Assembly (NCBI GenBank): GCA_028280575.1
Contig: JANQLN010000010.1
Location: forward strand, 18,933 to 82,932
Length of the DNA: 64,000 nt
Direction: 5' to 3'
From: Clostridia bacterium
Lineage (GTDB): Bacteria; Bacillota; Clostridia; Acetivibrionales; STF1-152
Each line of letters opens with the position of its first letter. Position 1 is the stretch's first letter. Shown here piece by piece: positions 16,849 to 45,155 of this stretch. The position numbers and the translations under genes were made by a program. The notes below the pieces were generated by a model. That model had not been told where the DNA came from. It saw only the letters and a list, made by a program, of their open reading frames with translations, and ran no database searches.

Positions 16849-16992
16849 TCATTTATTGCCAACACCTGCAGGGGTGCTGCGGTATTCCATTGCAACATCC
16901 TTAATTTTATGGCTCCTGACCCGTTGAGTCAGCCAAAATCCGTTCCCTGCAGGATCCTCTATATCTGCAAGCTTAAATCTCCAATTCCTGAA
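16849..16992 (-). pseudogene. Possible remnant of a VOC/glyoxalase-family gene (C-terminal fragment, no start, upstream stop)
   Basis: My minus-strand translation gives FRNWRFKLADIEDPAGNGFWLTQRVRSHKIKDVAMEYRSTPAGVGNK*. The block ...KLADIEDPAGNGFWLTQ resembles the terminal DPdGN-x-hydrophobic strand of VOC proteins. The frame is closed by TGA just upstream and there is no start or RBS. Confidence 0.3.
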
Positions 16993-17055
16993 TCAAAACT
17001 TTTTCTCAATGCATTTCCCTCCTCATTGATCCTACTGCCTGTTCAATCTGCCTGG

Positions 17056-18525
17056 CTATCTGCTATCAAGGGTATGAGGCACTACATCACAGGTTTCCAT
17101 ATAGAATCTCAAAAGTCGTTCTCTCATCTCAATTAATACATCCTTTAGCGCCGGGTCCTCAATTTTGTTATGCAACTCCATAGGATCTTTTTTCAAATCG
17201 TAAAGTTCATCGGTTTCGTATAATCGCATCACATACTTATATTCTTTCGTACGCACCATTGTCGCCTTTGTGTGTTCAGGCCCTTCGCTGGTCTGCAAGC
17301 TCATACGCGGCCAATAAATCATTTCCGGGCTTCTGCTGCCCTTTGATTCTTTCTCCATACAGTGTTTTTCTTCTTGCAGCCTGCCTCCTTCGGCAAAAAC
17401 AGCATCCCTGTGTTCATCTTTTTCCCCCTTCACAATGGGCAAAACCGATCGTCCAAAATGTGTATGCTTCGGTTCAATCGAAGCCAAAGCTTCAACCGTA
17501 GCGGGAAAATCAATCAGCTCAATCAATGCATCGTTGATATGGGGTTTTACACCTACATCGCCGGGAGGCTTTACAATAAACGGTACATTTATCAAACAAT
17601 CCTCAAAAGTATTCTGTGTCTTTTCTACAAGCCCGTAATCCCCGGTAAAATCCCCATGATCACTTAATACAAAAATGGCCGTATCGTCATATAGCCCTTC
17701 TTCTTTCAGCGCATCGACCAAAAGCCCAAACTGGTAATCAATTCTCGAACACATGCCGTAATAGACCGCTCTCAATTCAGTCCACTTGTTCTCCGTCCAT
17801 GTACAGAGGTTTTGTCTTCCGTAAAGACCTCTAACCATACTGGGCTTCATATCCCAATTTTCAGGAGTAGGAATCCTGTCGGGCACTTTATCCCTTTCTA
17901 TTTGACTATACCAAGGATCTTCAACGGCGTAGTGAGGATGGGGATAAGTAAGGGACAAAAACATGCAGAAAGGCTTATCCTTTGACCCGGTATGGATAAA
18001 ATCAACGGCCTTTCTTATGATATTCCAGTCAGACCCGCCTTCAGGACCATCCCATTCATTTTCTATTTTACCTTTAAAAAATGAATAGTAATTCTCTCCG
18101 CCCATCTCCCCCCGCCAAGATTGTTCAACCTTTACATTGGTCGGCTGAAAATTTGACTGCTTCGGTATTCTGACATCACAATACAAATCCATTTTATCTT
18201 TATCTGCGACCAAATCGTTCTTACCCGCCCACCAAACGTAATAGCCTAATTCCTTCAGGCTCCTTAACAATACCGGCTCTCCTGCACGCATCAAGTGATG
18301 CATGATCCGGTGTCCTCTAACATGGGGATACCAGCCGCTCATAAAGCTGCAGCGGCTGGGTGTGCACACGGGATTCTGGCAAAATGCATTCCGAAACGAT
18401 ACACCATCTTCCTCACATATTTTATCCAAATTCGGTGTAACCGCTGCCGGGTTTCCTAAATGACCCAAGCTATCCGCCCTGAATTGATCCGGATTAAATA
18501 TGACAATATTAGGTTTTTTTTTCAT
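17056..18525 (-). CDS. Sulfatase (formylglycine-dependent, Cys-type), no signal peptide
   Basis: 489 aa. It has the N-terminal metal-site segment PNIVIFNPDQFRAD and the sulfatase signature CTPSRCSFMSG (C-x-P-x-R). There is no hydrophobic leader, so it is predicted cytoplasmic. Confidence 0.88.
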   Translation of the reverse strand: MKKKPNIVIFNPDQFRADSLGHLGNPAAVTPNLDKICEEDGVSFRNAFCQNPVCTPSRCSFMSGWYPHVRGHRIMHHLMRAGEPVLLRSLKELGYYVWWAGKNDLVADKDKMDLYCDVRIPKQSNFQPTNVKVEQSWRGEMGGENYYSFFKGKIENEWDGPEGGSDWNIIRKAVDFIHTGSKDKPFCMFLSLTYPHPHYAVEDPWYSQIERDKVPDRIPTPENWDMKPSMVRGLYGRQNLCTWTENKWTELRAVYYGMCSRIDYQFGLLVDALKEEGLYDDTAIFVLSDHGDFTGDYGLVEKTQNTFEDCLINVPFIVKPPGDVGVKPHINDALIELIDFPATVEALASIEPKHTHFGRSVLPIVKGEKDEHRDAVFAEGGRLQEEKHCMEKESKGSRSPEMIYWPRMSLQTSEGPEHTKATMVRTKEYKYVMRLYETDELYDLKKDPMELHNKIEDPALKDVLIEMRERLLRFYMETCDVVPHTLDSR

Positions 18526-18775
18526 TCTACAATCATCCTTTAATCATAATAATTTTGTACTTATCTATTGCAGACGATACACCGTAACTTTTCAATCCTT
18601 AAACAGGAATGTTTCAAAAAACATTTCGTCTAGTACCTTGAGTCAATGATATCATAAATTCTATTTCTTTGAAACTGCTTTTGATCGAAGCAATTTGCAT
18701 CTTAATCAGTTTCAATTAAGGAGCATACTAATGATACGGAAACAAAAATATTCCAGCATGAAAAAAACCAATCGG

Positions 18776-20344
18776 TCAGTTTAATTTTCTCCATTCCTGG
18801 TTAACCTGCTCTGTTATTTTATCTCCGCCGTTTTTCAGCCATCTTTTCTGCATGTCGTCTAGCGCTTCCAGAGGCAGCTGCCCTACAATAACTTTTATGG
18901 TCGTTTCTTCCACCAATTTCAACAACTCTGCATATTCACCCATTGTGGGCACCATACCGTAAAATTCGTTTAGAGCTGTATATTTTTCGGTCATAGAAAT
19001 CGCTTCAAGTATTTCGCTTTCCACCCACCTTCTGTCCGTTACGCTGATAATTCTTGCAGTCCCTTTCACTGATTGAATCTGACCGTCATACAGTAAATTA
19101 ATCCTATTATTTTCTTGATCATAGGTATAATCTTCCCCCTCAAATCCGAATTGAACCAAAATTGCTCCTTCTTCAGACATCAGATAGTCCAAAAGCATTA
19201 TCACCACCTCGGGCTCCGGTGCTTTAGAGGATATTAAAGCGGATCCGCCGCCGCCGGGCTGTCTTCTTTCAAAACCCCTATGCCCTTTCGGCCCTTTAGG
19301 CGGCATAATCATTTTAAGTTCTGCATCTGGGAATGAAGAAACAAGGGATTGGTTCACAGCATTCTTTTTTGAAACATACCACATATGATGTCCCGATGTT
19401 CCGATGATCCCCCTTGAATATTTTTCTTTGTGATCCTTACCTTTTGTAATGATAAATTCAGGGTCGATTACTCCCTCCTTATACCAGTCGCTAAGCAGTT
19501 CTAAAGCCTGCCTATACTCTCCGGCCATATGGGTAGCTACAACTTGGTCCCCTCTTTTGACCCACCCGTAGGTACCGTGTTTATGAACAGGCAAGCCAAA
19601 GGCTCCCATAATATGACCGAAATTCCAGTCAATTCTGTCTCCCAATCCGTAAGTATTATTCTCGCCGTCACCGTCAGGGTCATCAAAGGTCATGGCTCTA
19701 ATTAAGTCATGGTATTGATCCAAGTCGAAATCTTCACTCATCGCTTTTTCGGCAAAGCCCAGTTTTTCCACCCAGTCCCATCTGGCCAGCACTCCATTTA
19801 CATCGCCGCCGTTGCCGGGCTCAGGTCTTCGCCCTTTTGGTATCGCATATATTTCCCCTTCGGATTTAACATATTTCCAAGCCTCAGGCAAAACCATTTT
19901 TTTTATGTTGGGACCGTATTGGTCAATCAAATCTCCTAACGGTATAATAGCGTCTTGTTCTTTCCAGAACTCAAAATTTTCTTTCTTAAAAATATCCGGC
20001 GGAGTCCCTGCCGCCATGTACAGGTTCAACTTGGTATCATAGTCTCCGACAGGTACGAACTCAACCTCAAACTCTATTCCCGAACGTTTCATGACTTCTC
20101 TTGGAATCGGCATCTCGTTATAGGGCATCGCAGGTTGTTCAAAAGCCTGGGGCATCAAAACCGTAATGGGCCTTGTCTGCTTGATTTTTTTTTCTTCTGT
20201 GCCGATGTCTTGCTGTTCCTTCTTATCCTCTTCGGCTCCAATCGGTCCCCGTTGGTCTGCTTCCCTTTGTCCGCACGCTGTCAACACCAATGCATATACC
20301 AATACAAACACCAAACCTAATGCTATAATACTTGATTTCCTCAT
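18776..20344 (-). CDS. Extracellular solute-binding lipoprotein of a CUT1/Lpl-type carbohydrate ABC importer
   Basis: 522 aa with a signal peptide and lipobox (LVLTAC), then a Glu/Lys-rich linker and a large family-1 SBP body. RBS GGAGGAGG. It follows two permease genes. Confidence 0.88.
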   Translation of the reverse strand: MRKSSIIALGLVFVLVYALVLTACGQREADQRGPIGAEEDKKEQQDIGTEEKKIKQTRPITVLMPQAFEQPAMPYNEMPIPREVMKRSGIEFEVEFVPVGDYDTKLNLYMAAGTPPDIFKKENFEFWKEQDAIIPLGDLIDQYGPNIKKMVLPEAWKYVKSEGEIYAIPKGRRPEPGNGGDVNGVLARWDWVEKLGFAEKAMSEDFDLDQYHDLIRAMTFDDPDGDGENNTYGLGDRIDWNFGHIMGAFGLPVHKHGTYGWVKRGDQVVATHMAGEYRQALELLSDWYKEGVIDPEFIITKGKDHKEKYSRGIIGTSGHHMWYVSKKNAVNQSLVSSFPDAELKMIMPPKGPKGHRGFERRQPGGGGSALISSKAPEPEVVIMLLDYLMSEEGAILVQFGFEGEDYTYDQENNRINLLYDGQIQSVKGTARIISVTDRRWVESEILEAISMTEKYTALNEFYGMVPTMGEYAELLKLVEETTIKVIVGQLPLEALDDMQKRWLKNGGDKITEQVNQEWRKLN

Positions 20345-20414
20345 TATTAACCTCCTCCATTTCTAAAGACATCTTAAAACACTAATCCAACTCAGGGTTT
20401 ATAGATATCACGCT

Positions 20415-21290
20415 TTACCCTTTTAAAGATCCCACCATCACCCCTTTCACAAAATACTTTTGAATAAACGGATAGACAAACAGAATCGGTACGGTTACAA
20501 CAATGATGGTTGTGGCTTTAACTGCTTCCGGCACATCTAGAGTATCCTCTTCCGCTCCGGCTAAAAATTCGGTAACTTGAGAAAGCATTACAATCTCTCT
20601 TAATAATAATTGTAAGACAATTTTACCGCGTTCCTGAATATAGATAAGGCAGAGAAAGAAATCATTCCAATACATGACTGCATACCATAAAGAAATGGTA
20701 GCTATCACGGGCAGGGACAAAGGAAATACGATCTGGAAAAATATCCTATATGTCCCCGCCCCATCTATGGTTGCAGCTTCTTCCAAGTCATCTGGCATAT
20801 TTTGAAAAAAGTTTCTGGTAATGATAAGATTAAAAGGCATAATAATTGTCGGCAGTATAAGCGCCAACCTGGAATTAATTAACCCAAGGTTCTTAACCAC
20901 AAGATAAGTGGGAATGATGCCTCCGCTAAACAACATTGTAAAAACAACCATCAGTGTAAATACGGTTTTACCCGGTAAAAACTTTTTAGATAAAGAATAG
21001 GCCATTATTGCTGTTAAAAACACACTTGATATTGTTCCTAAAACGGTCACCAATATTGAATTCTTAAAAGCATTCCATATGGAAATAGAACTCAATACCC
21101 TTTCATAGGCTGCTGTCGAAAAACCGTTGGGAGTGAGAAAGAAACCTCCTTTCAATGCTCCCTCGGGGCTGCTTAACGACAGGTTAATCAAATACACAAA
21201 AGGATACAACATGGTTATGGCCAATAAAATCATAAAAATAACGTTTCCTGAATCAAAAATTCTCTCTCCCCAGCTTTTTTTGTTTATCAT
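20415..21290 (-). CDS. Carbohydrate ABC transporter permease (LplC/MalG-like)
   Basis: Six TM segments and the EAA loop DDLEEAATIDGAGTYRIFFQIVFP. I use the ATG at 21290 (MINKKSWGERIF...) with GGAGGAAG upstream rather than the track start at 21338, which would overlap the upstream gene. Confidence 0.9.
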   Translation of the reverse strand: MINKKSWGERIFDSGNVIFMILLAITMLYPFVYLINLSLSSPEGALKGGFFLTPNGFSTAAYERVLSSISIWNAFKNSILVTVLGTISSVFLTAIMAYSLSKKFLPGKTVFTLMVVFTMLFSGGIIPTYLVVKNLGLINSRLALILPTIIMPFNLIITRNFFQNMPDDLEEAATIDGAGTYRIFFQIVFPLSLPVIATISLWYAVMYWNDFFLCLIYIQERGKIVLQLLLREIVMLSQVTEFLAGAEEDTLDVPEAVKATTIIVVTVPILFVYPFIQKYFVKGVMVGSLKG

Positions 21291-21303
21291 AAATGCTTCC
21301 TCC

Positions 21304-22272
21304 TTACCAAATACCCGATTGACCAAACCATTTGGCAATTTTATTTGTCACAATGACCATTATAAGTCCCACAACGCCCTTAAAGAGTCCCACCGCAGTG
21401 GCAAAACTATACTGGGATTGTGTCAGTCCGACCCTATATACGAAAGTGCCGAAGACATCGGCAATATCATACACCGCTGGATTGTATAAAACCAATATCT
21501 GTTGAAAACCTACGTCCAAAATACGGCCTACTCTCAAGATCAACAGCACGACTATCACGCTTCCTATGGAGGGCAGAGTAATATGCAAAGCTTGCTGCCA
21601 GCGGTTGGCGCCGTCCACAATTGCTGATTCATATATCTCAGGATTTATACTTGTTATTGCAGATAAATATACAATTGTACCCCAGCCGCTATTTTTCCAA
21701 ATTTCCGTGATAACCAGAACGGAACGGAACCATCTGCGATCTGCCAGGAAAAAGACCGGTTTTCCTCCAAACAGCTCAATTAAATAATTTACTACACCGG
21801 TACTGGGAGATAATATGACATAAGCAATACTGCCTACGATAACCCATGAAATAAAATGGGGAAGATATACGATGGTCTGTATTGTTCGTTTAAACACCAG
21901 CTTTCTCAATTCATTCAGTAAAAGCGCTAAAATAATAGGGGCAGGAAAACCAAAAATCAACTTGTACAAACTAATGATCAACGTATTGCGAAATACATTC
22001 CAGAACTCGGGCGAATCGAACAATCTTACAAAGTGTTTGATCCCAACCCACTCACTGCCATGTATACCTCTAAAAGGGCTAAAATCCTTAAAGGCAATTG
22101 AAATTCCATACATGGGAGCATATTTGAACACTATAAAATAGATGAGTCCCGGAAGCAACAATACATAAAAGGCTCTATACTTCCAAACAAGTTTCATCAT
22201 ATGATCCATAGAGGATACAAACTTTTCAACATAACCATATTTTGTCTCTATACCAGCCTTTTCTAAAGACAC
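21304..22272 (-). CDS. Carbohydrate ABC transporter permease (LplB/MalF-like)
   Basis: 322 aa, polytopic, with the EAA-like loop EIYESAIVDGANRWQQALHITLP. The GTG start at 22272 is preceded by AGAGAGGTG. Confidence 0.88.
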   Translation of the reverse strand: MSLEKAGIETKYGYVEKFVSSMDHMMKLVWKYRAFYVLLLPGLIYFIVFKYAPMYGISIAFKDFSPFRGIHGSEWVGIKHFVRLFDSPEFWNVFRNTLIISLYKLIFGFPAPIILALLLNELRKLVFKRTIQTIVYLPHFISWVIVGSIAYVILSPSTGVVNYLIELFGGKPVFFLADRRWFRSVLVITEIWKNSGWGTIVYLSAITSINPEIYESAIVDGANRWQQALHITLPSIGSVIVVLLILRVGRILDVGFQQILVLYNPAVYDIADVFGTFVYRVGLTQSQYSFATAVGLFKGVVGLIMVIVTNKIAKWFGQSGIW

Positions 22273-22296
22273 CGCTTACACCTCTCTTTGATTTAG

Positions 22297-22327
22297 CCGT
22301 TGAACCCGACGCCGCCGGGTTCAACGG
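22297..22327 (-). other. Intercistronic GC-rich stem-loop between the GH2-like gene and the transporter genes
   Basis: CCGTTGAACCCG (22297..22308) and CGGGTTCAACGG (22316..22327) form a perfect 12-bp stem with a 7-nt loop. On the transcribed (minus) strand no U-tract follows, so it is not a canonical terminator. Confidence 0.6.
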
Positions 22328-22356
22328 TTTGTTTACGAACAGCTTAATACATCAAT

Positions 22357-25300
22357 TCAGGGCTGCGGTCCGGTATCCTCGGTTAACATATACCGCAGCA
22401 GCTGATCAAACATATAGGCGCTTTCCGGTCTGTCCAGATTATAATACAGACTGGAAACCATAAGCGTTCCTTGCCCTTTTTGCGCTTCAAACAAATAGGA
22501 TAAGGGGCGATTTCCCTTCTTTTCAGCTACAGCGCCATCCTCACTGCCCTCTATAGTCCGCCAGTAATCAATAACCCGTATAATAGGCGTTACGTTATAA
22601 GTATCCCATTTGGCGGCGTCCAGATAGACAGCCGTACAGCCCTCCGGTTTGTCACTGGTATGAACATTGTGTATCAAATCAACCAGACCGAAATCCATAT
22701 AACCCTCATGGGGAATATTTTTCATAGCAGGATGGGTGCCGTCAATCACTTCACCCCAAGTTACTCTCTCCGCATAAAATCCGCTGGTTGTCATATAGGT
22801 AGCCCATTTCCTGGGCACTCTGCGTGGATTTTGTGCAAATCCCCAATCCTTCTCCTTTTCTTCGTATACGCCTCTTGCAAATATGAACGCTTTACCTCCG
22901 TTATTGATATGCTTATCCAGAACCTCAGATTGATGATCCGTAATAAAAATATCCGCCGCCGATGGCGGGTTCGTCGTTACAAAAGGATATTTGCTTTTGA
23001 TCTGCCCTGACAGACCGATATCCTTAATATCCACGACTATCTTTTTATCAGTATGACTCATATACGTATCCGGATAAACCCAGTACAGCCATTCATTATC
23101 TATATTTACCGATGTACTCGTGAACTGCCCCACTAATTTGTATCGTTTTCCCACCATAACTTCCGGCAATACCAAACTGACCTTTGCCAGCTCTGTCAAG
23201 TCTCCGTTTTTCAGGGAAATATTCTCTGCAGCCCCTCTACTGATTACCTCACCGGTATCCTCCTCTTTAAACGACCATTCAAGCCGTCCTCCGCTGATAT
23301 CCTGTAATCCCGTATGATGTATATGGATGCTTTCGTTAAAGGCTCCTTTACTGAAAAACTGCCTTTCTTGGTACTTCGAAACCGGAAGCAGCACTGTTTC
23401 ACCATTGGATTTTAAAAATTCCTCCGCCGTCGTATTGGTTGGGGCATAGAAATCATCCAATACCCCCATCCTAAGTAATCCGGTATCCTGTGCAAGCCAC
23501 ATGATATAACCATCCATAGTTTCATAGGCTGTCCTGTACCACTCTATACCATATTTTCTGGTCATTTTCTGAAGCTCTCCGGATTTTTCCGCAAATATCG
23601 GCAGCAAATCGGTTAACCCGCTCTTTGCCGCAGATGCTTTCGTATAGTTTATCTGCCAGGGTGTCAGCGGAGAGTTCCAATATTTCTCTTCCAGCCTAAT
23701 ATCCGGATATGCCGACCAATGACCATATTCGTGCCTGAAACAAGGAATATTCTTAACGTCACTATTATGGGTAATCACATCGCACCATTTCCTTACGGCC
23801 GGGCTGTCCGGTCCCCCGGAAGACGACATAACAAATCTTGTGTCGTCAAAAGCCTTAGCCGTATCATAGGCATATTTCATGATGGGATGCACATTAGTGC
23901 CTGTCTGTTCATTACCCATAGACGTAACCATTTTGGAAGGACTATTCAAATCCCGGCGGATGATATGATCCCACATATCCCTTCTAACTATTTCGCTATA
24001 GGGATTTTTCTTGTAATAGGTGCCAATAATCCCGGCTTCTTGTTGTATGAACAAACCCAGTTCGTCGGCCACATCAAGAAATTCCGGCGCCGGAATGCTG
24101 CTGTGGAGCCTGATATAATTAAAACCATAATTTTTCAGCTGCTGAAGATTGCTTCTAATCACATTCCTGTCAGTCTCGGGGGACAAACTGTTTGGGTAAA
24201 CGTTTAAAAAGCCCGTGCCCCTAACATAAAAGAGTTCATTGTTAACGTATAGTTTACCGTGCGATGTGCTTAATTTTCGCATGCCAAAATAGTCTCTCAA
24301 CCCATCCTTTCCCCCTTGGCTTTCAATCAAAATTTCTGCCTCGTATAACTTGGGATGCTCCGGGTGCCACAGCTCCGCACCGGACATATCCACCTCAAAT
24401 GCCACCTCAGCTACCGAACTCGCAGGAACAAAAGCGTTAGCATCCGCACTCTTAAAATCTCTCCCGTTGTCTTTAATCTTTGCCTGGAGCCTGATCTCTC
24501 TGTCCGCAGTATCAAGGTTTTCTACCCACACTTTGACGGCTGCTTTTTGATTGTCAATATCAGGTTTCATGAAAAAGCGCTGTATCCTGACTTTAACTGT
24601 CTGCTCCACTTCCACGCTTCTGAACAGACCGGAAAAGAAATTCATCCTGTTATAACCGCTGCCCATTATCCTTGCAAAAAAATCTTCATCAATCTTAACA
24701 ACCAGTGTATTTTTCTGACCTATCCGGGCAATATCGGTTATATCATATGCAAAAGGCACAAAAGCACCCTTATGATAACCGACATATTGACCATTAAGCC
24801 ATATTTTTGCTGCCGGCAGCACTCCTCCGAACTTTATAAATATAGGATGGTCGACCTTCCAGTCGGCCGGGATGTCAAAGGCTTTCTTATACCACGAAGG
24901 CGGGTAAGCTGCCGCCTTGATTTTCTTGAACCTCAGACTAGCTGCCGGTATATGGGATAAATCATCTCTATAACCGGCTGCCATAAGGTTGCCGGGAACA
25001 GCAATCTTTTCGGAAAATGCAGTAGTTCCCTCATACCATTTTTCTTGTTCGCCTTGGTCCCAAGGGTCGTCTTTAAATTCAAAAATGCCGTCAAGTTTGA
25101 GGTTTTTTCTGACGTCGTGCACCGGTAGTTCCGGATTAACAATTGCAGGCATATACTTAGGGTAATTGCTGGGGTCCCACTCCCAAGCGATTTCATTTAT
25201 TCTTTTCTCCCCTAATGCATAGTTATAAATAGACAACTCGTCAATACTGCCCAGCCATGCACTTCTATCAAGGCTGTTCCCCACTGTAAACGCTCCTGAA

Positions 25301-26496
25301 AAAGCTGTCGGGACTGCTGTACTCTCTCCTGCCAATTCACCGTCAATATACATCCCTATTTTTCGACCGTCATATCTTAGTACAACATGATGCCACATCT
25401 TGTCCGTAACCGCCGTATTTGATTTTAAAGCTGCTTCCCCCACCAAATCACTCACAATATATCCGCCGGCATCCCTATAAAACCAGTCCAATCCCTTTTG
25501 GCTGAGAATACTGCCTTCCCTATTGTCTTCCGGATATATCCATGTTGCGATTGTAAAGCCTTTGCTGTCCGGGCCAAACACATCGGGCAGTGAAATATAA
25601 TCATCTTGTCCGTCAAAACGGAAGCAGCCGTTTTTAATACCTGCTTTTTGCCATGAAGCACCATGGACTGTCCCGTGATGGCCCTGATTACTTGAATCCG
25701 CGATCTTTCCCAGAGTATCTTGATCTACACTCATTTCCCAATATCCTGCCAGTTGTCCTGTTTGAATGATTTCATACTCCAGCCCTGAATTTTTAACGAT
25801 ATTTCCAATCTCTTCCGGACTCAATACCCCATTGTATATACGTACATCATCGATATACCCGGACCATTTGTTCCCTTTGTCCGGCGTTCTGGTACCTACA
25901 TACATTATATTTCCCCAGGTCCTCTTAGATGCTCCGGCCAGAGACGCCTCATCGTCAAGCACACCATTGACATACAGCTTCAATTTTTTAGCCTTACCAT
26001 CATTTACCACCGCTATATGATACCATTTACGATCTTCCATTTTATAATCTGTTGACTTCACTTCTGCTTTGTTATAGATGGGAACCTTTATATTTCCCTC
26101 AGCAGCTTTTACAATCCATCCTGCAGCCGTACCGGCGTTTCCGCTGCCCATTATATTCCTGAATGCCGTCGCATTGATGGGCTTGACCCAAAGCATATAC
26201 GTAAAATCATCCGATAACTCCGTTTCAGGATTGAGCGGCAACTGAACATAACCATTATTAAACCCATAACATTGCCCGCCAACTCCGTCGTCGTTTATAA
26301 CCGTTACACCGGCATCAGATACAATCCCATTCCGCCCGTTGCCGCTTGAATCTCCGGCGCTGCCGTTAAATTTCCAGTGCCCCAGCAACGCTGTTTGTGC
26401 TGAAACAGGCTGTTTTACGGCCGGTAATAGAGACAGCACAAACACAAGCATCAACATAGCCGATAAGCCTTTTTTCATTATTTCCCTTAAATACAT
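22357..26496 (-). CDS. Secreted multidomain glycoside hydrolase: signal peptide, two LamG/concanavalin-like lectin domains, GH2-like catalytic module
   Basis: The start is moved to the ATG at 26496 (MYLREIMKKGLSAMLMLVFVLSLLPAVKQPVSAQ), which has GGAGGGG 5 nt upstream. Two repeats of the LamG_3-type pattern are present (...SGNGRNG...WVKP...LKLYVNGVLD...IDDVRIYN and ...SNQGHHG...TWIYP...IGMYIDGELA...IDELSIYN). A GH2 sugar-binding-like segment follows (WYKKAFDIPADW...IKFGGVLPAAKIWLNGQYVGYHKGAFVPFAYDITD). The TIM-barrel segment (NYIRLHSSIPAPEFLDVADELGLFIQQE) has a candidate acid/base in SMGNEQ and a candidate nucleophile in RHEYGHW. Confidence 0.8.
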   Translation of the reverse strand: MYLREIMKKGLSAMLMLVFVLSLLPAVKQPVSAQTALLGHWKFNGSAGDSSGNGRNGIVSDAGVTVINDDGVGGQCYGFNNGYVQLPLNPETELSDDFTYMLWVKPINATAFRNIMGSGNAGTAAGWIVKAAEGNIKVPIYNKAEVKSTDYKMEDRKWYHIAVVNDGKAKKLKLYVNGVLDDEASLAGASKRTWGNIMYVGTRTPDKGNKWSGYIDDVRIYNGVLSPEEIGNIVKNSGLEYEIIQTGQLAGYWEMSVDQDTLGKIADSSNQGHHGTVHGASWQKAGIKNGCFRFDGQDDYISLPDVFGPDSKGFTIATWIYPEDNREGSILSQKGLDWFYRDAGGYIVSDLVGEAALKSNTAVTDKMWHHVVLRYDGRKIGMYIDGELAGESTAVPTAFSGAFTVGNSLDRSAWLGSIDELSIYNYALGEKRINEIAWEWDPSNYPKYMPAIVNPELPVHDVRKNLKLDGIFEFKDDPWDQGEQEKWYEGTTAFSEKIAVPGNLMAAGYRDDLSHIPAASLRFKKIKAAAYPPSWYKKAFDIPADWKVDHPIFIKFGGVLPAAKIWLNGQYVGYHKGAFVPFAYDITDIARIGQKNTLVVKIDEDFFARIMGSGYNRMNFFSGLFRSVEVEQTVKVRIQRFFMKPDIDNQKAAVKVWVENLDTADREIRLQAKIKDNGRDFKSADANAFVPASSVAEVAFEVDMSGAELWHPEHPKLYEAEILIESQGGKDGLRDYFGMRKLSTSHGKLYVNNELFYVRGTGFLNVYPNSLSPETDRNVIRSNLQQLKNYGFNYIRLHSSIPAPEFLDVADELGLFIQQEAGIIGTYYKKNPYSEIVRRDMWDHIIRRDLNSPSKMVTSMGNEQTGTNVHPIMKYAYDTAKAFDDTRFVMSSSGGPDSPAVRKWCDVITHNSDVKNIPCFRHEYGHWSAYPDIRLEEKYWNSPLTPWQINYTKASAAKSGLTDLLPIFAEKSGELQKMTRKYGIEWYRTAYETMDGYIMWLAQDTGLLRMGVLDDFYAPTNTTAEEFLKSNGETVLLPVSKYQERQFFSKGAFNESIHIHHTGLQDISGGRLEWSFKEEDTGEVISRGAAENISLKNGDLTELAKVSLVLPEVMVGKRYKLVGQFTSTSVNIDNEWLYWVYPDTYMSHTDKKIVVDIKDIGLSGQIKSKYPFVTTNPPSAADIFITDHQSEVLDKHINNGGKAFIFARGVYEEKEKDWGFAQNPRRVPRKWATYMTTSGFYAERVTWGEVIDGTHPAMKNIPHEGYMDFGLVDLIHNVHTSDKPEGCTAVYLDAAKWDTYNVTPIIRVIDYWRTIEGSEDGAVAEKKGNRPLSYLFEAQKGQGTLMVSSLYYNLDRPESAYMFDQLLRYMLTEDTGPQP

Positions 26497-26517
26497 TTTT
26501 ACCCCTCCATCTTGACA

Positions 26518-26557
26518 GATTTTTTGTTCTAATCCTATAGCTTTAGAACAAAAAATC
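26518..26557. promoter_or_regulatory. Perfect 15-bp-arm inverted repeat in the 5' UTR of the GH2-like gene
   Basis: GATTTTTTGTTCTAA (26518..26532), a 10-nt spacer, then TTAGAACAAAAAATC (26543..26557), an exact reverse complement. It lies 22-61 nt upstream of the start codon at 26496 and downstream of the predicted promoter. Confidence 0.8.
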
Positions 26558-26645
26558 TCGGAACATAAACATTTCTTTGCTGCAATAATATTTGATAATT
26601 TCATATTAATATGTATGTCATTTTTTTAAAAGCCAAAATTTTTGT

Positions 26646-26674
26646 ATTATATGTTTAAAAAATTATACTTTCAA
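26646..26674 (-). promoter_or_regulatory. Putative sigma-A promoter of the GH2-like/ABC operon
   Basis: The minus strand reads TTGAAA (26674..26669), a 17-nt spacer, then TATAAT (26651..26646). This implies a 5' UTR of about 140 nt. Confidence 0.55.
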
Positions 26675-26783
26675 TGTATAGTTTTTGTGGTTAATGTACA
26701 AAAATTATGCTTTCGCTCGTCCTATGTGTCTCCTTCTGTGCATTTCCGACACGAATATAGTAAGTGCCAATAATTGCTGCAGG

Positions 26784-26808
26784 CAAAAAAAAAGAGGAAA
26801 GCTCCTCT
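26784..26808 (-). terminator. Intrinsic terminator after the membrane AraC regulator gene
   Basis: The minus strand reads AGAGGA gctt TCCTCT followed by T9 (the A-run at 26784..26792 on +). The stem overlaps the TAG stop at 26807..26809. Confidence 0.7.
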
Positions 26809-29131
26809 ATTTTTGACTGCATTCCCGATATTGTCCCGGTGTTATTCCTTCAAACATCTTAAAATATCGAATGAAACCATGTTCGTTATTATATCCTACC
26901 TTTTCGGAAATTTCCCGTATCGATAAATTCGAATCCGTCAGCATTGTTTTACTCTGTTCGATTCTAATGCGGTTAATATATTTGACAAGAGTAGTCCCTT
27001 CACAGTCTTTAAACATTCTGCTGACATAGGTCCGGCTCAAATCCACTTTAGCGGCAACCATATCCAGCGCAATATCTTGGCTGTAATTACTCTGAATATA
27101 TGCTTTGATTATTTCAATATATTTGTTTTTATGACAATTGTGCTTGTTATCTAAATACCCTATAATCTTTTTACAGATATCCAATACCCATGCTTTGATA
27201 TCATCAATGGTTTCATTCTTAGCAAACCTGGTATATATATTGGTTTTACTCCCTAATACTTCCTGCATGGTCCCGCCGTATTCCAAAACAATATTTACCG
27301 CCGAGCTCAACATTCTTTTAAATATCTGCAAAACACATTCTACAGATAAACCAGGTTTTTTCTTGATTTCCAATACCAGTTCTTCAATCAGTTTTTCCAA
27401 AAGTTCATACTCTCTGCTTTCCAGCAGGTTGATAAATATTTTTTCTTTTTTAACCGGATAATAATACAGCACTTCCGTATCCATTTTTCTAATATCCTGT
27501 ATATGAATAACGGTATTGTTGCCAACGAGCAACCGATACTTTAAAGCCCTCAGGGCTCCCAGATATGAGGTTGAAACATCCATAAGATCATGACATATAT
27601 TCCCTATCCCTATTGAAACACTCATGTCAAAATTCTCAAGCACCTGCTGCTTAAACTGCTGTGCAAGTGAGACAATATCGTTTTTGTGCATGTTCACCTT
27701 CATATTGCATAAGGCTGCAATATTTTGCTCCGTATCTATCACCGTAACTAAATTCATTTTATCGGCCAATATTTTTTCTTCCATTTGCCTAATTCTATTC
27801 AAAAATACTTGTCTTTTCCCTTTATCCAGCATGACATTCCCAAATTTATCATTACAGTCCATATCCATAACCATTACAAAAATGCCACTGCCTGTCAAGG
27901 TTATTTCCAGTTCATGTATCTGTTCCATTAAATAGACTCTTGAATCTATCCTGTTTCTCAGTAAATCATTGATGATTTTCTCTTCAATAAGAGTCTTGTT
28001 TTTGTTGTAAAATCCTTTTAATTTTTCCTCGCTGACAGTCACATCATCAAAGAGAGCTGTCAAATACTTGAATTCATCTAAAATTTTCTTCTTGCCGGCA
28101 AATATGCTGGCATTTGAATCCGCTTTATTGACTTTCGTTAAAAACTTTTCAATGGGATTATAGATTTTTCGGGATACGGGATAACTGATAATAATGGCTG
28201 CAATGCTCATCATTGCAATGATAATGACCGTACTGTCCCGGATATTATTTAATACTTTAAGTTCTTCTTTCAGATCGGTTACAGCTAAATATATCCGTCC
28301 ATTGGGTGAAGACCGGATAAAGGAAACAATATTTTTATTTTTTTCTCCGTCAAAAAAATATCCCTCTTTATCCTGTGCCACCTTTTGCATGAAATGCAAG
28401 GGCATATGCTGGTCTGTTACCGGTTGATTTGAAGAGATAATTGATCCGTTTTCATACAGCATGTAGAGCTGCGTTTGCCCATTCAACACAATTTCACTTA
28501 AGCTTTCCCACAATCTCTTTTCATCTAAAACAAAAATGATATATCCCTTGCTCTTTTTTCCAAGCAGAGGTACTTTTTGCAAATACACGATGTTTCCGCC
28601 CGTACTTTCCACAAAAATAGGCTCTTTAAAACTTGTCCGTGTTAACTTTTCACCAATTTCACCTGCATGCATCTTTTGCATCCAATGATAGTCAATCACT
28701 TTTTTATCCTTTTCAAAACCGTTTTTGACAGAAAATACACCACGATTGTTAAAGCTGTAAATATAAATATCTTTTATGGCATCTTCATTATAAACAATCC
28801 AGCTCATTTCTTCACTTAATTTGTATAAAGAATAAAAAATTTCGCTGTTCTCATTGATAAAACTCAAAGTGCTTTGGTTTTTCAATAAATTGATTGCCGT
28901 ATTTTCTACATTCTTAAAAGTCTGCTCATAGGTTTTATTAATCTGTCGCAGTACTTGTATATTATGCTTTGTGATTTCATGTTCAATGCTTTTGCCGGAT
29001 AAATTATAGGAAATATATCCAAGCAAAGTCATGAGTGCAATGATAATTAGAACAAAGGATACATAAAGTTTTACAAAAGTTTTGCCAAACGGGAAATTAA
29101 ACCGCAATATAACCACCCCAAAGAATAACAT
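26807..29131 (-). CDS. Membrane-anchored one-component AraC-family regulator (TM, extracytoplasmic sensor domain, TM, cytoplasmic linker, AraC HTH)
   Basis: 774 aa. Two hydrophobic helices (VSFVLIIIALMTLLGYISY and TVIIIAMMSIAAIIISYPV) bracket a domain of about 270 aa. The C-terminus is a classic AraC double HTH (...LDMVAAKVDLSRTYVSRMFKD...LSIREISEKVGYNNEHGFIRYFKMFEGITPGQYR). There is no receiver, HisKA or HATPase motif. The ATG at 29131 lacks an SD. The TTG at 29107 has GGGGTGG 5 nt upstream and may be the true start. Confidence 0.85.
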   Translation of the reverse strand: MLFFGVVILRFNFPFGKTFVKLYVSFVLIIIALMTLLGYISYNLSGKSIEHEITKHNIQVLRQINKTYEQTFKNVENTAINLLKNQSTLSFINENSEIFYSLYKLSEEMSWIVYNEDAIKDIYIYSFNNRGVFSVKNGFEKDKKVIDYHWMQKMHAGEIGEKLTRTSFKEPIFVESTGGNIVYLQKVPLLGKKSKGYIIFVLDEKRLWESLSEIVLNGQTQLYMLYENGSIISSNQPVTDQHMPLHFMQKVAQDKEGYFFDGEKNKNIVSFIRSSPNGRIYLAVTDLKEELKVLNNIRDSTVIIIAMMSIAAIIISYPVSRKIYNPIEKFLTKVNKADSNASIFAGKKKILDEFKYLTALFDDVTVSEEKLKGFYNKNKTLIEEKIINDLLRNRIDSRVYLMEQIHELEITLTGSGIFVMVMDMDCNDKFGNVMLDKGKRQVFLNRIRQMEEKILADKMNLVTVIDTEQNIAALCNMKVNMHKNDIVSLAQQFKQQVLENFDMSVSIGIGNICHDLMDVSTSYLGALRALKYRLLVGNNTVIHIQDIRKMDTEVLYYYPVKKEKIFINLLESREYELLEKLIEELVLEIKKKPGLSVECVLQIFKRMLSSAVNIVLEYGGTMQEVLGSKTNIYTRFAKNETIDDIKAWVLDICKKIIGYLDNKHNCHKNKYIEIIKAYIQSNYSQDIALDMVAAKVDLSRTYVSRMFKDCEGTTLVKYINRIRIEQSKTMLTDSNLSIREISEKVGYNNEHGFIRYFKMFEGITPGQYRECSQK

Positions 29132-29169
29132 AGATATGCAATAACCGATATTTTACTTTTCACTACTAA

Positions 29170-29199
29170 AGTTTACCACATTAGATAATTTTCTGTCAA
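29170..29199 (-). promoter_or_regulatory. Putative promoter of the membrane AraC regulator gene
   Basis: The minus strand reads TTGACA (29199..29194), an 18-nt spacer ending in TGG (the TG sits 2 nt upstream of the hexamer, not the canonical TGn), then TAAACT (29175..29170). Confidence 0.4.
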
Positions 29200-29269
29200 C
29201 TTAAACCTGTTTTGAGTTTCCCCATTTTTTAAAATAGGTATATATTTATGAGTACAATGAACCATCGGT

Positions 29270-29310
29270 AAAAAAAACAGCAGGGTTCATTGCTAAGATA
29301 GCCCTGCTGT
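29270..29310 (-). terminator. Intrinsic terminator after the 515-aa sulfatase gene
   Basis: ACAGCAGGG (29277..29285) pairs with CCCTGCTGT (29302..29310). On the minus strand the 9-bp GC-rich stem is followed by TTTTTTTT. Confidence 0.75.
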
Positions 29311-29323
29311 TTTTCATTTCCTA

Positions 29324-30871
29324 TTACCGCCCAAATCTTCCTTTGCGGCCGTAAAATGCAAAATGCATCTGTGGTGTGCCGTTTATAAGATTGCCGTCGC
29401 ATTCCTTGATCAGTTTCTGCCTTAGTTCATCTACCTTTTCCGGATACTTTTCCGCTACGTTTTTTTCCTCACGATAGTCTTCCCGGATATTAAAAAGCTG
29501 GTATTCCACCATCTCCTGCATATCGTCAAGGAACGCACCAAGACGCTCATATCGGTATTGCTCCATATCGATTACAGCCCTTATCTTCCAGCCGTCTCTG
29601 GTGACAAGCGCAGGTCCCATGTAGCTGGCATATACAACATATTCGTGAGCTTGAAGATTATGCCAGGCACCGGTCAAAAGAGGTGCAAAGGAAATACCGT
29701 CCTTGTTCTCAGGTATTTCTATCTCCAGCAGTTCTGCTAAGGTAGGCATAAGGTCATAATTAGCAACCATGTGGTCGGTTATCCTGCCCGGCTTTATTAT
29801 GCCCGGCCAGCGCATGATATATGGAATCCTCACTCCGCCTTCCCAACTGGTGAATTTCAGCCCTGCCATCCCGTCATTACCGTCAAACACATCTCCACAG
29901 GTATTGGAATAAAATTTGGTATTAATGTTATCTATTTTCTCTCCGCTGCTCGTCATTTCACGCAGGACTCTGCCTTCCTGTCGGTATTGCAGTGCGTGTC
30001 CATTGTCTGAGCTAAAAATGACCAGAGTATTTTCACTTAGGTTGAGCCTTTCAAGCTCGTCCAGGATCAGTCCCACCGTTTTATCCAGCCTCAATATCAT
30101 GGAGGCAAATTCCTTTTCAAGATCGTTGAGAACAGGATTATCTGCAACACCCGGATGGATCTCAGGGAAAAATATGGAGCCATGGGGAAGCTGTGACGGA
30201 TGATATAAGAAAAAGGGTTTGTCCCTATGTTCCCTTATGAATTCAATGATTTTTTCATCGAACAAATCCTGTGAGTATACCTTTCTGCCTGTCATGTCAA
30301 TTTGCTCGCCCTGTTCAAAGGCACTGCGTTTGGCTCCGCAGTTCACAAAGGTATTTCCTTCAATCTCAAATTTTTTTCCGTTTTTAAACAAAAAGGTGGG
30401 ATAATAGCCATGACATCTCAAATGATCATAATAACCATAATGGTAGTCCCAGCCATGGCGTTCTACTTCGTCTCCAGTGGTTGCAAAACCCCACTCAAGC
30501 TTGCCGATCTGTCCGGTTACATAGCCGGCTTTTTGAGCAATCTGAGGGAGAAAAACATCCTCGGATCCGTCCTGTATGCCTGTATTATGGATTAATTCAT
30601 ACACTTCTTCCATTGTCAGGGCTCCTTTATCAATTTCCTTATAAATACCAGCTTTTGTAAAAGTCCATCTTCCTGCATGTGCATCATGCAGCCCGCACAG
30701 TACACTGGCTCTTGCCGGTGCACAGAAGGCACATCCGTATGCTTGGTTGAACATTATCCCTTCCCCGGATAAACGATCAATATTCGGAGTCTGAAAATGT
30801 TTTTGCCCGTAGCAGCTAAGCATTCCTCTTCCAAGATCATCGGCATAGATATATATAATATTTGGTTTCAT
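29324..30871 (-). CDS. Sulfatase (formylglycine-dependent, Cys-type, arylsulfatase A-like), no signal peptide
   Basis: 515 aa with the segment PNIIYIYADDLGRG and the signature CAPARASVLCG (C-x-P-x-R). There is no hydrophobic leader. RBS AAGGAGG. Confidence 0.88.
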   Translation of the reverse strand: MKPNIIYIYADDLGRGMLSCYGQKHFQTPNIDRLSGEGIMFNQAYGCAFCAPARASVLCGLHDAHAGRWTFTKAGIYKEIDKGALTMEEVYELIHNTGIQDGSEDVFLPQIAQKAGYVTGQIGKLEWGFATTGDEVERHGWDYHYGYYDHLRCHGYYPTFLFKNGKKFEIEGNTFVNCGAKRSAFEQGEQIDMTGRKVYSQDLFDEKIIEFIREHRDKPFFLYHPSQLPHGSIFFPEIHPGVADNPVLNDLEKEFASMILRLDKTVGLILDELERLNLSENTLVIFSSDNGHALQYRQEGRVLREMTSSGEKIDNINTKFYSNTCGDVFDGNDGMAGLKFTSWEGGVRIPYIMRWPGIIKPGRITDHMVANYDLMPTLAELLEIEIPENKDGISFAPLLTGAWHNLQAHEYVVYASYMGPALVTRDGWKIRAVIDMEQYRYERLGAFLDDMQEMVEYQLFNIREDYREEKNVAEKYPEKVDELRQKLIKECDGNLINGTPQMHFAFYGRKGRFGR

Positions 30872-44250: not shown

Positions 44251-44273
44251 AGCATCCCCATAACTGACATTTA

Positions 44274-45005
44274 TTAATTTACAATTATTTTAAGTAATTT
44301 TTCAATTGAATAATCACTTCTTGCAACAGTCCTAATTGTTTTTCCATCTCTAATAATTGTAGTTCTGTCTGTAAAATCGATAATGTTATCAATTCTGTTG
44401 GTAATATAAATTACGGATACTGCCTTATATTTCAAATGCCTGATCATTCTTTTAAAAATAACTATCTCAGTGTCGCTGAATAACGGCATCAAGTCATCGA
44501 ATATAATCAGCTTAGCATTTGAAATGTATGCACTGATAACTGAAACCATACACTTTTCAATGTGAGAAAGCTCATTCACCTGTCTGCTTGGCTCTATTAT
44601 ATTGACTCCTAGAATATCAAAACACTGTCTTGTCAAATCATATATTTCACCTTTTTTATACCTCCATCCAAACCTCAATTTGGAATTGACAAATATATTC
44701 TCAATAACATTGAGATTAGGGAAAAGGCTAAAGTTTTCATAAATGCAAAATATGCCCTTTTGTTTTGCCTCTAAAGGAGTAAGATTATTTACTTCTTCAT
44801 CTTCATAGTATATTTTGCCGCTGCTCTTTTTTTTCAAGCCTGACAGAAGTTTCAACAAAGTTATGCGACCTGCTCCAAATTCACCGAGAATACCTAGTAT
44901 TTCACCTTTATAGACATTAAGATTAATATCGCTTAAAACTTTGCGGCCATATTGTTTGTTTGTTACATGATCCAGCCTGATTATTTCAACCATGTTATCA
45001 CACAT
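44274..45005 (-). CDS. Half-size ABC nucleotide-binding-domain paralog with degenerate catalytic motifs (predicted non-catalytic)
   Basis: 243 aa and colinear with NBD1 of the neighbouring CUT2 ATPase (45260..46813), but the motifs differ. Walker A is GEFGAGRIT (neighbour GENGAGKTT). The Q-loop is CIYEN (IVHQE). The signature is LSHIEKC (LSTAQKQ). Walker B is LIIFDDLM (VLILDEPT). The H-loop is ITNRI (ISHKL). It is the first gene of the operon with the YesN/YesM pair, 23 nt upstream of the RR start. The start is uncertain (ATG at 45005 or 44993, weak SD). Confidence 0.8.
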   Translation of the reverse strand: MCDNMVEIIRLDHVTNKQYGRKVLSDINLNVYKGEILGILGEFGAGRITLLKLLSGLKKKSSGKIYYEDEEVNNLTPLEAKQKGIFCIYENFSLFPNLNVIENIFVNSKLRFGWRYKKGEIYDLTRQCFDILGVNIIEPSRQVNELSHIEKCMVSVISAYISNAKLIIFDDLMPLFSDTEIVIFKRMIRHLKYKAVSVIYITNRIDNIIDFTDRTTIIRDGKTIRTVARSDYSIEKLLKIIVN

Positions 45006-45126
45006 CCATAAAGCACTTTTTTGGAACTGTAGACAAGTTATATAATTATTATACCTTTAAAAAGATATCTTGTAAATACGAAAATAAAACCCAAAGAATA
45101 TTACACCTTATATAAAAATCATCTAC

Positions 45127-45155
45127 TTGTTGAAGTAATTTGAGGGTATTATAAT
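45127..45155 (+). promoter_or_regulatory. Putative sigma-A promoter of the CUT2 ABC operon
   Basis: TTGTTG (45127..45132), a 17-nt spacer, then TATAAT (45150..45155), about 105 nt upstream of the ATG at 45260. Confidence 0.5.

Follow-up and report, generated by a model that had tools for sequence, protein, structure and literature searches.

The seven intact genes at 17056-30871 of the window (the whole stretch of 64,000 nucleotides that was analysed), all on the minus strand, raise the question of how a Gram-positive bacterium might handle a sulfated glycan, and which glycan that would be. Judging from the sequence, we lean towards a locus for a sulfated galactose-containing glycan, which is trimmed outside the cell before its pieces are taken up and desulfated inside, and the substrate is probably a sulfated beta-galactoside-containing glycan of algal or host origin. 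The overall design is already known, and the locus is a fresh example of such a system. The gene content given by a sequence-only reading of this DNA was right, with all seven open reading frames at the span it gave and their domains identified by Pfam. Artefacts of gene fusion or frameshift were rejected because the length of every open reading frame in the locus equals that of its ortholog. The conserved unit comprises the regulator, the GH2 glycosidase, the two permeases, the binding protein and sulfatase A, and these six core genes are syntenic with the related loci L001 and L093 (85-93% amino-acid identity, dN/dS 0.09-0.21). Enzyme, transporter and regulator are co-located on one strand and the arrangement is kept in a relative, which is what defines a Gram-positive polysaccharide-utilisation locus (gpPUL). 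The closest related loci come from MAG.222 (GCA_022360955.1) and from contigs of Tara and other metagenomes; a literature search with the accession numbers of the closest MAG and of the samples returned nothing, and habitat was read from sample names alone. The host is most likely an uncultured, Clostridium-like gut member of the Bacillota with a locus of this type.

The regulator (26807..29131, minus strand) is a membrane one-component protein of 774 aa, in which an extracellular dCache domain between two transmembrane segments is followed by a GGDEF_2-like domain and an AraC helix-turn-helix (Pfam dCache_1, GGDEF_2, HTH_18). Its gene is flanked by those of sulfatase B and the GH2 and was absent from the title of the sequence-only reading. 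Its ortholog in L093 occupies the same position with 87% identity and dN/dS 0.17, and the terminator-like hairpin and T9 run at its stop codon (26793..26808, minus strand) are conserved in sequence in L093. The predicted sigma-70-type promoter of the operon for the GH2, permeases and binding protein, TTGAAA-17-TATAAT (26646..26674, minus strand, 11/12 matches), is the top-scoring site of the region, and its -10 element is conserved in L093. Between this promoter and the GH2 ribosome-binding site lies a 42-nt palindrome or leader hairpin (inverted repeat I1, 26517..26558, minus strand, 21-nt arms, 90% complementary), which is present in both the MFE and centroid folds and, as we read the alignment, is kept in L093 with both arms changed; its role may be that of an operator or of a stem in the mRNA. 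An Rfam search of the window found no riboswitch and no other RNA family. We predict that glycan or oligosaccharide outside the cell is sensed by the Cache/AraC regulator, which then switches on the promoter at 26674-26646.

The tandem-LamG GH2 glycosidase (22357..26496, minus strand) has 1379 aa and a signal peptide, and Pfam recognises in it two Laminin_G_3 domains and the GH2 N, sandwich and TIM domains. Its true start is M37, backed by a GGAGGGG ribosome-binding site and an identical 1379-aa database protein, and the leader MYLREIMKKGLSAMLMLVFVLSLLPAVKQPVSA precedes a Q. The N-terminal, Ig-like and TIM-barrel domains and both catalytic glutamates are present, and the model superposes on GH2 structures. 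The predicted acid/base is E863 (SMGNE) and the predicted nucleophile E923 (RHEYG); both glutamates are invariant in the clade, and the NE and HE motifs vary little or not at all. The AF2 model (pLDDT 81) has as its closest fold 8u01, a P. plebeius GH2 without published function (TM 0.74-0.76), and the top family models, exo-beta-1,4-galactosidase BT4151 (219 bits against a cutoff of 1500) and GalA, give weak family-level hints. The clade is rare, with one identical copy, relatives at 87% and 44% and about 10 full-length proteins at <=30% among 5.8 billion proteins. Relatives at 26-30% sit in mixed contexts (GH141-like and Apiosidase-domain proteins, transketolase-like, ECF sigma/FecR genes), and these were dropped as a substrate clue, being heterogeneous and uninformative. 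The LamG modules would bind the glycan in a lectin-like manner and the retaining exo-glycosidase would strip terminal, probably beta-galactosyl-type residues. The logic of outside trimming, ABC import and cytoplasmic desulfation fits. GH2 is an exo-acting glycosidase family, however, and the locus has no endo-acting enzyme, so that the extracellular release of oligosaccharides proposed earlier is not established; no cytoplasmic glycosidase remains in the locus either.

The importer is of the CUT1 (Lpl/MsmEFG) type and consists of two BPD_transp_1 permeases and an SBP_bac_1 lipoprotein. The LplB-like permease (21304..22272, minus strand, 322 aa, PF00528, dN/dS 0.10) is 91% identical to that of L001 and 58% identical to that of the Paenibacillus locus L092 over the 93 residues available, and the LplC-like permease (20415..21290, minus strand, 291 aa from MINKK, PF00528, dN/dS 0.11) has an ortholog also of 291 aa and 48% identity to L092. 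The solute-binding protein (18776..20344, minus strand, 522 aa, SBP_bac_1) has a lipobox LTAC in a lipoprotein leader that reads ...LVLTAC ahead of GQ, and among solved structures AlgQ1/2 and Smon0123 come nearest to it, with about 90 bits (Smon0123, remote, with about 88); both bind anionic oligosaccharides. The binding protein and the two permeases would import anionic sulfated mono- or oligosaccharides. As the sequence-only reading had observed, the window encodes no MsmX/MsmK-type ATPase, the sole ABC ATPases being CUT2-type (a tandem ATPase at 45260-46813 and a CUT2-like half ATPase of 243 aa at 44274-45005), and no anSME, since the sole radical-SAM protein of the 64 kb is YgiQ (TIGR03904, 847 bits) and no radical-SAM plus SPASM protein matches TIGR03942. 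That reading had held these absences to be noteworthy, but they are the usual state: of 81 sulfatase A loci, 4 have an anSME-like gene no more than 10 kb away, and of about 160 related loci none has an MsmX-like ATPase, judged by Walker-A motif and length. Another Lpl-type system of the window is also without an ATPase. MsmX is a shared ATPase in B. subtilis, and the absence fits an ATPase encoded elsewhere; we presume that such a shared MsmX-type protein energises the importer.

The downstream edge of the locus bears on both the last step and the substrate. Synteny with L001 stops at 16956, and the edge is a decayed stub (16957..17087, minus strand), found by tblastn and blastn against L001 and by translation: what is left of a GalA-like GH2 beta-galactosidase gene is its initial ~43 codons, with three in-frame stops. 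The intact gene of L001 encodes 967 aa (689 bits against NCBIfam GalA) and is also found in L006, and in both loci it overlaps the sulfatase A stop codon. In such relatives a cytoplasmic beta-galactosidase, encoded right after sulfatase A and lost here, would cleave the desulfated sugar. Because synteny ends at the stub, the flanking LacI-GFO-aminotransferase-NagA operon falls outside the locus; it has its own promoter and no counterpart in related loci, and we rejected it as a part. This amino-sugar operon had been taken as a hint to the substrate, and its nagA is real (4.4 kb downstream), but it starts beyond the synteny break where the GalA-like GH2 was lost and is therefore not substrate evidence.

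Both sulfatases carry the S1 sulfatase domain PF00884, which has the alkaline-phosphatase fold, well over the gathering score. The export calls made earlier were borne out, with leaders on the GH2 and the binding protein and none on the sulfatases, and the C-x-P-x-R signatures (CTPSR, CAPAR) proved invariant across homologs of each sulfatase. Both sulfatase reading frames open at the first start codon past a stop, so an N-terminal extension is impossible. Members of both families are found among sugar transporters or glycosidases in other loci.

Sulfatase B (29324..30871, minus strand, 515 aa, PF00884 E=3e-47, ADDLG metal motif) is a predicted cytoplasmic Cys-type S1 sulfatase whose domain starts at residue 3, and its motif C50-A-P-A-R54 and metal-binding residues D11-D12 and D289-N290 are all invariant in the alignment. 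It had been counted as one of the two sulfatases of the locus; however, it forms its own transcription unit, is absent from the ortholog locus L093 and lies outside the conserved core, to which adjacency in this genome alone links it, as an accessory. Its best solved relatives are 7ana, which we take to be BT1622 (200 bits), and BT1636 (7an1/7oqd, an S1_20 3S-Gal sulfatase, 188 bits). The S1_20 structures lead the next PDB group by 55 bits, but a clear same-subfamily match scores 380-495 bits, and S1_20 membership is not established because the score is roughly half of that. The B. thetaiotaomicron S1_20 enzymes BT1636 and BT1622 (3S-Gal/3S-GalNAc) have the C/S-A-P-x-R and DDxG motifs in common with sulfatase B, but BT1636 is extracellular and both are exported, whereas sulfatase B is leaderless. 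In metagenomes the neighbours of this family are GH29, GH95, GH2 and SusC genes. An ortholog with 72% identity lies in the sulfatase/GH2/ABC/anSME cluster L092 of Paenibacillus sp. URB8-2, together with two sulfatase-A-like genes (44%), the permeases (48-58%), a binding protein (33%) and a large GH2. That cluster differs from the present locus in that its GH2 is 25% identical to ours without a LamG match, and it has in addition a CBM9-like protein, a 613-aa protein, a bona fide local anSME (TIGR03942, 408 bits against a cutoff of 349) and an S1_11-like sulfatase with 495 bits to the GlcNAc-6-sulfatase 5g2v.

These relationships allow a different target, namely host sulfated LacNAc-type glycans (mucin O-glycans, keratan-sulfate-like chains) instead of algal galactans, which we regard as possible but doubtful. 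The S1_20 3S-Gal/GalNAc sulfatases nearest to sulfatase B among characterised enzymes are mucin-active, GH29 and GH95 fucosidases and GH2 occur alongside its family, and the strong 5g2v match in the Paenibacillus comparator and the nearby nagA point the same way. Against this, sialidase, hexosaminidase, fucosidase and endo-O-glycanase are all missing from the locus, the synteny break separates it from the nagA unit, and the nearest GH2 fold relative comes from P. plebeius. Moreover, one GH2 paralog adjoins a LamG-tagged protein with arabinofuranosidase C-terminal domains (ASD1_dom, Alpha-L-AF_C), and KDG-kinase and KDPG-aldolase genes, of a kind common in algal and uronate catabolism, accompany a paralogous sulfatase A locus of MAG.222.

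Sulfatase A (17056..18525, minus strand, 489 aa, PF00884 E=5e-36) is likewise a predicted cytoplasmic Cys-type S1 sulfatase; its domain begins at residue 5, which leaves no room for a signal peptide. The motif C54-T-P-S-R58 and the metal-binding residues D13-Q14 and D289-H290 are all invariant in the family alignment, dN/dS against the ortholog is 0.09, and members of the family from Bacillota, Chloroflexota, Armatimonadota and Planctomycetota share 58-66% identity. The nearest solved sulfatases (4upi, 6pt4, 4upl, 6hr5 and 6hhm) reach only 106-128 bits, and sulfatase A, like sulfatase B, cannot be assigned to a characterised subfamily. Clustering of the neighbours of 81 sulfatase A loci gave transporters and regulators only, with no consistently associated glycosidase, and pointed to no substrate. 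Both sulfatase-like proteins might be general aryl- or alkyl-sulfate hydrolases or promiscuous PMH-type scavengers of sulfur and phosphorus, next to a sugar operon by accident, as the promiscuous arylsulfatase/PMH-clade structures 4upi, 4upl and 4uph among the top matches, the D-Q motif that the Mn-dependent arylsulfatase EfAS also has, and the wide spread of the family in soil bacteria with no fixed glycosidase partner would suggest. We consider this improbable, since CUT1 sugar permeases adjoin sulfatase A family genes in about 27-32 of 81-85 loci, the overlap with the beta-galactosidase gene in close relatives may reflect translational coupling, the relatives of sulfatase B are carbohydrate sulfatases, and the curated models for choline-sulfatase, arylsulfatase and PehA all score far under their cutoffs. 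True PMHs (2w8s, 2vqr, 4upk) score 77-90 bits against sulfatase A, below the sulfatases by a small margin. Placement in a non-sulfatase clade had been named earlier as grounds for abandoning the sulfatase reading, and by PDB scores neither protein is nearest to the phosphonate monoester hydrolases. It is equally hard to credit that the locus is a decaying remnant whose original substrate no longer supports growth after deletion of the cytoplasmic beta-galactosidase, as the three-stop stub and the break at 16956 might indicate, because all six core genes are full length and under purifying selection, the promoter and leader are conserved in L093, and glycosidases elsewhere in the genome could replace the lost gene.

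The reading that we prefer is still trimming outside, import, and desulfation inside, in which sulfatase A, and probably sulfatase B, would first have its formylglycine made by an anSME encoded elsewhere and would then desulfate the imported sugar in the cytoplasm. Known systems resemble it in part. In the glycosaminoglycan cluster of Streptobacillus moniliformis, which contains Smon0123, an ABC importer, the predicted cytoplasmic sulfatase Smon0126 and UGL, Smon0123 imports sulfated chondroitin disaccharides, unmodified, for that sulfatase (PMC5430744). The likeness lies in the three steps of extracellular depolymerisation, ABC import of sulfated disaccharides and desulfation by a predicted cytoplasmic sulfatase, while the difference is that S. 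moniliformis uses a lyase and a GH88 for uronate-containing glycosaminoglycans with its own ATPase Smon0120, and the present locus has a GH2 and neither lyase nor GH88. Firmicutes gpPULs (Lachnospiraceae, Paenibacillus, Epulopiscium) act on red-algal galactans, for example the agarose and porphyran loci of Faecalicatena, with enzymes closely related to others from Epulopiscium and Paenibacillus (bioRxiv 10.1101/2020.06.09.142968). The nearest relatives of the present locus also come from Paenibacillus and marine-expedition metagenomes; however, those gpPULs are centred on endo-acting GH50, GH86, GH16 and GH117, and here there is one secreted GH2 and no endo-enzyme. Sulfatase-containing Gram-positive seaweed-glycan loci have already been described, and the earlier view that sulfatase-centred loci are much less studied in Clostridia was in that respect overstated. 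The Kyphosus and ruminant carrageenan literature served as background, and no locus matching this one is described there.

Breakdown mechanisms for sulfated glycans are known mostly from Bacteroidota, with periplasmic or cell-surface sulfatases, and this understanding is unchallenged by the locus. Further, we tentatively suggest, as a speculation with the odds against it, that the tandem-LamG GH2 founds a sparse new subfamily, whose secreted members would free sulfated sugars from sulfated galactans of algae or hosts, and that sulfatase A represents a large, uncharacterised cross-phylum family of cytoplasmic carbohydrate sulfatases (Paenibacillus, Chloroflexota, Armatimonadota, marine gut Clostridia; ~60% identity between phyla), jointly a widespread 'sulfated sugar in, sulfate off inside' route outside Bacteroidota. 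The present locus and its Paenibacillus counterpart offer intact gene sets with which to test import followed by cytoplasmic desulfation as a Gram-positive alternative. They bring together two sulfatase families, both abundant, and a GH2 clade that is rare, none with a characterised member; once these have been characterised, thousands of genes from soil, sludge and animal-gut genomes that now read 'sulfatase-like hydrolase' would be better annotated.

The locus at window positions 17056-30871 contained seven ORFs, every one on the minus strand, and probably represents a Gram-positive PUL-type locus for a sulfated and likely beta-galactoside-containing glycan or fragments of one. In transcription order, these were sulfatase B (29324-30871, 515 aa), a regulator (26807-29131, 774 aa), a LamG-LamG-GH2 protein (22357-26496, ORF extending to 26604, 1379 aa), an LplB-like permease (21304-22272, 322 aa), an LplC-like permease (20415-21290, ORF extending to 21338, 291 aa), a binding protein (18776-20344, 522 aa) and, last, sulfatase A (17056-18525, 489 aa). 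All seven assignments were backed by Pfam and NCBIfam, which agreed with the sequence-only reading of a LamG-GH2 enzyme, an Lpl-type importer and two Cys-type sulfatases. The regulator, missing from the title of that finding, had two stretches that, on visual inspection of the sequence, would span the membrane, one on either side of a dCache domain, followed by a GGDEF_2-like region and an AraC HTH (Pfam). Gene content, export signals, catalytic residues, synteny and purifying selection are established for this locus.

The regulator, LamG-GH2, permeases, binding protein and sulfatase A were found in unchanged order on a metagenome contig (L001/L093) at 85-93% amino-acid identity, and dN/dS between the window and this ortholog copy was 0.09-0.21 across all six core genes, which argues that they are kept by selection. 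On the same contig and in a locus of MAG.222 (L006), sulfatase A was followed by a 967-aa GalA-like GH2 (scoring 689 bits with NCBIfam GalA), the start of which overlapped the sulfatase stop codon. The window held a pseudogene stub of this GalA-like GH2 beta-galactosidase at 16957-17087 (minus strand), with the first ~43 codons and three in-frame stops; nucleotide homology to L001 stopped at 16956, and the stub marks a putative deletion or rearrangement breakpoint. Past sulfatase A lay a unit of LacI, GFO oxidoreductase, class-III aminotransferase and NagA genes with its own predicted promoter, which had no counterpart in any related locus compared. This flanking amino-sugar operon had been taken as a hint of a hexosamine-containing substrate; NagA was a true one (TIGR00221, 281 bits; cutoff 226), but it lay past the synteny end at 16956, and since its adjacency would be a product of rearrangement, it says nothing on the substrate.

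The GH2 start was placed at M37 of the ORF, where a GGAGGGG ribosome-binding site precedes the ATG, and an identical database protein is also 1379 aa long. Export of this enzyme and of the binding protein, as proposed from the sequence, was upheld by a predicted and typical type I signal peptide (MYLREIMKKGLSAMLMLVFVLSLLPAVKQPVSA|Q) on the former and the lipobox LTAC on the latter. Among 5.8 billion clustered proteins, the catalytic part had one identical copy and single relatives at 87% and 44% identity, while the further full-length relatives (~10) all showed <=30% identity. The acid/base E863 and the nucleophile E923 (1379-aa numbering) were invariant. The AlphaFold model (pLDDT 81, pTM 0.85) matched 8u01, an uncharacterised GH2 of Phocaeicola plebeius, along its full length (TM 0.74-0.76, E=8e-59), a fit far exceeding that to LacZ-type enzymes, and the best family matches by sequence were the exo-beta-1,4-galactosidase BT4151 and GalA. 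Exo action is all but universal in GH2, so the secreted enzyme probably removes terminal residues from the polymer instead of breaking it into oligosaccharides; no endo-acting enzyme was present among the seven ORFs. Thus, of the extracellular cleavage suggested earlier, the export signal supports the location, but the release of oligosaccharides is weakened by the exo mode and the lack of an endo-acting partner. The only mid-distance LamG-GH2 relative, the 44% paralog of MAG.222 (L086), lay beside a 1149-aa LamG-tagged protein with arabinofuranosidase C-terminal domains (ASD1_dom, Alpha-L-AF_C), in a locus which also holds a two-component system and an ABC importer of its own and has no sulfatase.

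Sulfatase A carried the motif C54-T-P-S-R58 and sulfatase B the motif C50-A-P-A-R54, both at the expected PF00884 position, and both C-x-P-x-R motifs and the metal-binding positions were invariant in the homolog alignments. That both enzymes are leaderless was also confirmed: their domains start at residue 5 (A) and residue 3 (B) and each ORF begins at the first start codon past a stop, which, on these predicted frames, makes a signal peptide impossible in either. The sulfatase A family (>550 loci in the genome collection) showed 58-66% identity over Paenibacillus, Cohnella, Metabacillus, Chloroflexota, Armatimonadota, Planctomycetota and others, and its neighbours were chiefly CUT1 permeases, binding proteins and YesM/YesN-type or long AraC regulators. 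No solved sulfatase matched sulfatase A at >128 bits, and phosphonate monoester hydrolases scored lower than sulfatases did (77-90 bits), a modest margin that speaks against the phosphonate-monoesterase clade, the competing assignment raised by the sequence-only reading. The best solved matches of sulfatase B were BT1636 (7an1/7oqd, S1_20 3S-Gal sulfatase) and 7ana, at ~200 bits, short of subfamily placement; its family neighbours in metagenomes were GH29 (7 loci), GH95 (6), GH2 (6) and SusC-like (6) genes, which mark it as a predicted carbohydrate sulfatase acting on glycans rich in fucose or galactose. A sulfatase A paralog (87% identical) was also observed in MAG.222 (GCA_022360955.1; L003/L004/L007) beside a 482-aa sulfatase with best PDB matches 7oz8 and 9koq (~230 bits), together with a 748-aa AraC regulator, an Lpl-type ABC system, IclR, KDPG aldolase and two PfkB kinases; a tie of this paralogous locus to KDG/KDGal-type catabolism is suggested.

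Judged from its neighbourhoods, sulfatase B is an accessory gene in this genome, since it was not found in the ortholog locus L093 and a 91%-identical ortholog elsewhere adjoined a copper ATPase and a CsoR-like gene. Despite this position, evidence that it may be functionally part of the locus came from Paenibacillus sp. URB8-2 (L092), where the same families occur together in a distant genus: a 72%-identical ortholog lay inside a multi-gene cluster with permeases 48-58% identical to those of the window and a related binding protein (33%). The cluster also encoded a GH2 of 1400 aa, two relatives of sulfatase A at 44% identity, a further sulfatase strongly matching the GlcNAc-6-sulfatase 5g2v (495 bits), a CBM9-like protein and one unknown protein. 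The Paenibacillus cluster encodes a true anSME locally (TIGR03942, 408 bits; cutoff 349), whereas the window locus has none within 64 kb.

The earlier statement that both a maturase and a CUT1 ATPase are missing from the window was correct. When all larger ORFs of the 64-kb window were annotated, we found no anSME, the sole radical-SAM protein being YgiQ (TIGR03904, 847 bits), and no MsmX-type ATPase, the only ABC ATPases being of CUT2 type. An anSME-like gene was located <=10 kb away in 4 of the 81 loci with a sulfatase A homolog, and a crude test (Walker-A motif and length) revealed an MsmX-like ATPase in 0 of ~160 related loci, ~30 of which have CUT1 permeases; because of these counts, the absence of a local maturase and ATPase is an ordinary arrangement. 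That a single anSME serves many sulfatases and a single MsmX many importers is textbook knowledge. A second Lpl-type ABC system (58670-63946), with a 545-aa binding protein, two permeases and a YesM-like histidine kinase, had no ATPase gene either (58670-62328). Positions 40829-51012 held a YesM/YesN-type two-component system and a CUT2 operon that encodes, besides a tandem ATPase and a permease, a putative glycosidase of 680 aa (GHL6/GH42M-like) and a binding protein of the Peripla_BP_4 type; a lone 243-aa CUT2-like half ATPase was on the opposite strand (44274-45005).

Judging by consensus matches and intergenic gaps, sulfatase B and the regulator each seem to be transcribed on their own. 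The top promoter-like site, TTGAAA-17-TATAAT (26674-26646, a consensus match), was upstream of GH2, and a hairpin with a T9 run was at the regulator stop codon (26808-26793); the GH2, permease and binding protein genes were closely packed, and a 250-bp gap preceded sulfatase A. Between the predicted promoter and the RBS, the GH2 leader contained a 42-nt near-perfect palindrome (26517-26558), kept in the 88%-identical ortholog region with both arms altered (alignment read by eye), a candidate operator or mRNA stem-loop; for the 151-nt leader, the fold z-score was only -1.7. In L001, a 74%-identical copy (5515-5604) of window 26621-26712, the GH2 promoter region, sat in the 389-bp gap from GH2 to the first permease, a gap of 84 bp in the window, which suggests a duplicated internal promoter in this relative. 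GC skew over 1-64000 followed gene orientation, being negative over 1-32 kb (minus-strand genes) and positive from ~32 kb, with the cumulative minimum at ~31-33 kb, and the window had no replication genes that could mark this turn as an origin-type switch. A 447-aa protein with a sortase domain and a C-terminal cadherin-like beta-sandwich domain was encoded at 57112-58455.

We propose that the Cache/AraC regulator would sense, that exo-trimming would occur outside the cell, and that sulfated sugars would be imported with the power of a shared ATPase and desulfated in the cytoplasm by sulfatases matured by an anSME encoded elsewhere; in relatives a beta-galactosidase step would follow desulfation, a step lost from this copy. 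The nearest solved relatives of the binding protein were the alginate-binding AlgQ1/2 and Smon0123 (~88-90 bits), which lends weak support to an anionic ligand. Smon0123 binds sulfated chondroitin disaccharides and hands them to an ABC importer, and the receiving sulfatase is predicted to be cytoplasmic (PMC5430744); there, too, sulfated sugars would be taken up by an ABC importer before they are desulfated. By analogy, it is a direct precedent for the proposed three steps of cleavage, import and intracellular desulfation, of which the release of oligosaccharides is weakened by the exo-type GH2. As substrate class, a sulfated galactan or arabinogalactan from algae would fit, and so would mucin or keratan-type glycans from a host. 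For red-algal galactans, Firmicutes loci have been described whose enzymes have relatives in Epulopiscium and Paenibacillus (bioRxiv 10.1101/2020.06.09.142968). Because such loci, import followed by desulfation, and shared anSME and MsmX are all already described, the locus is a new example of a known design, and of greater interest within it are the LamG-GH2, which belongs to a rare clade, and two abundant sulfatase families without a characterised member.
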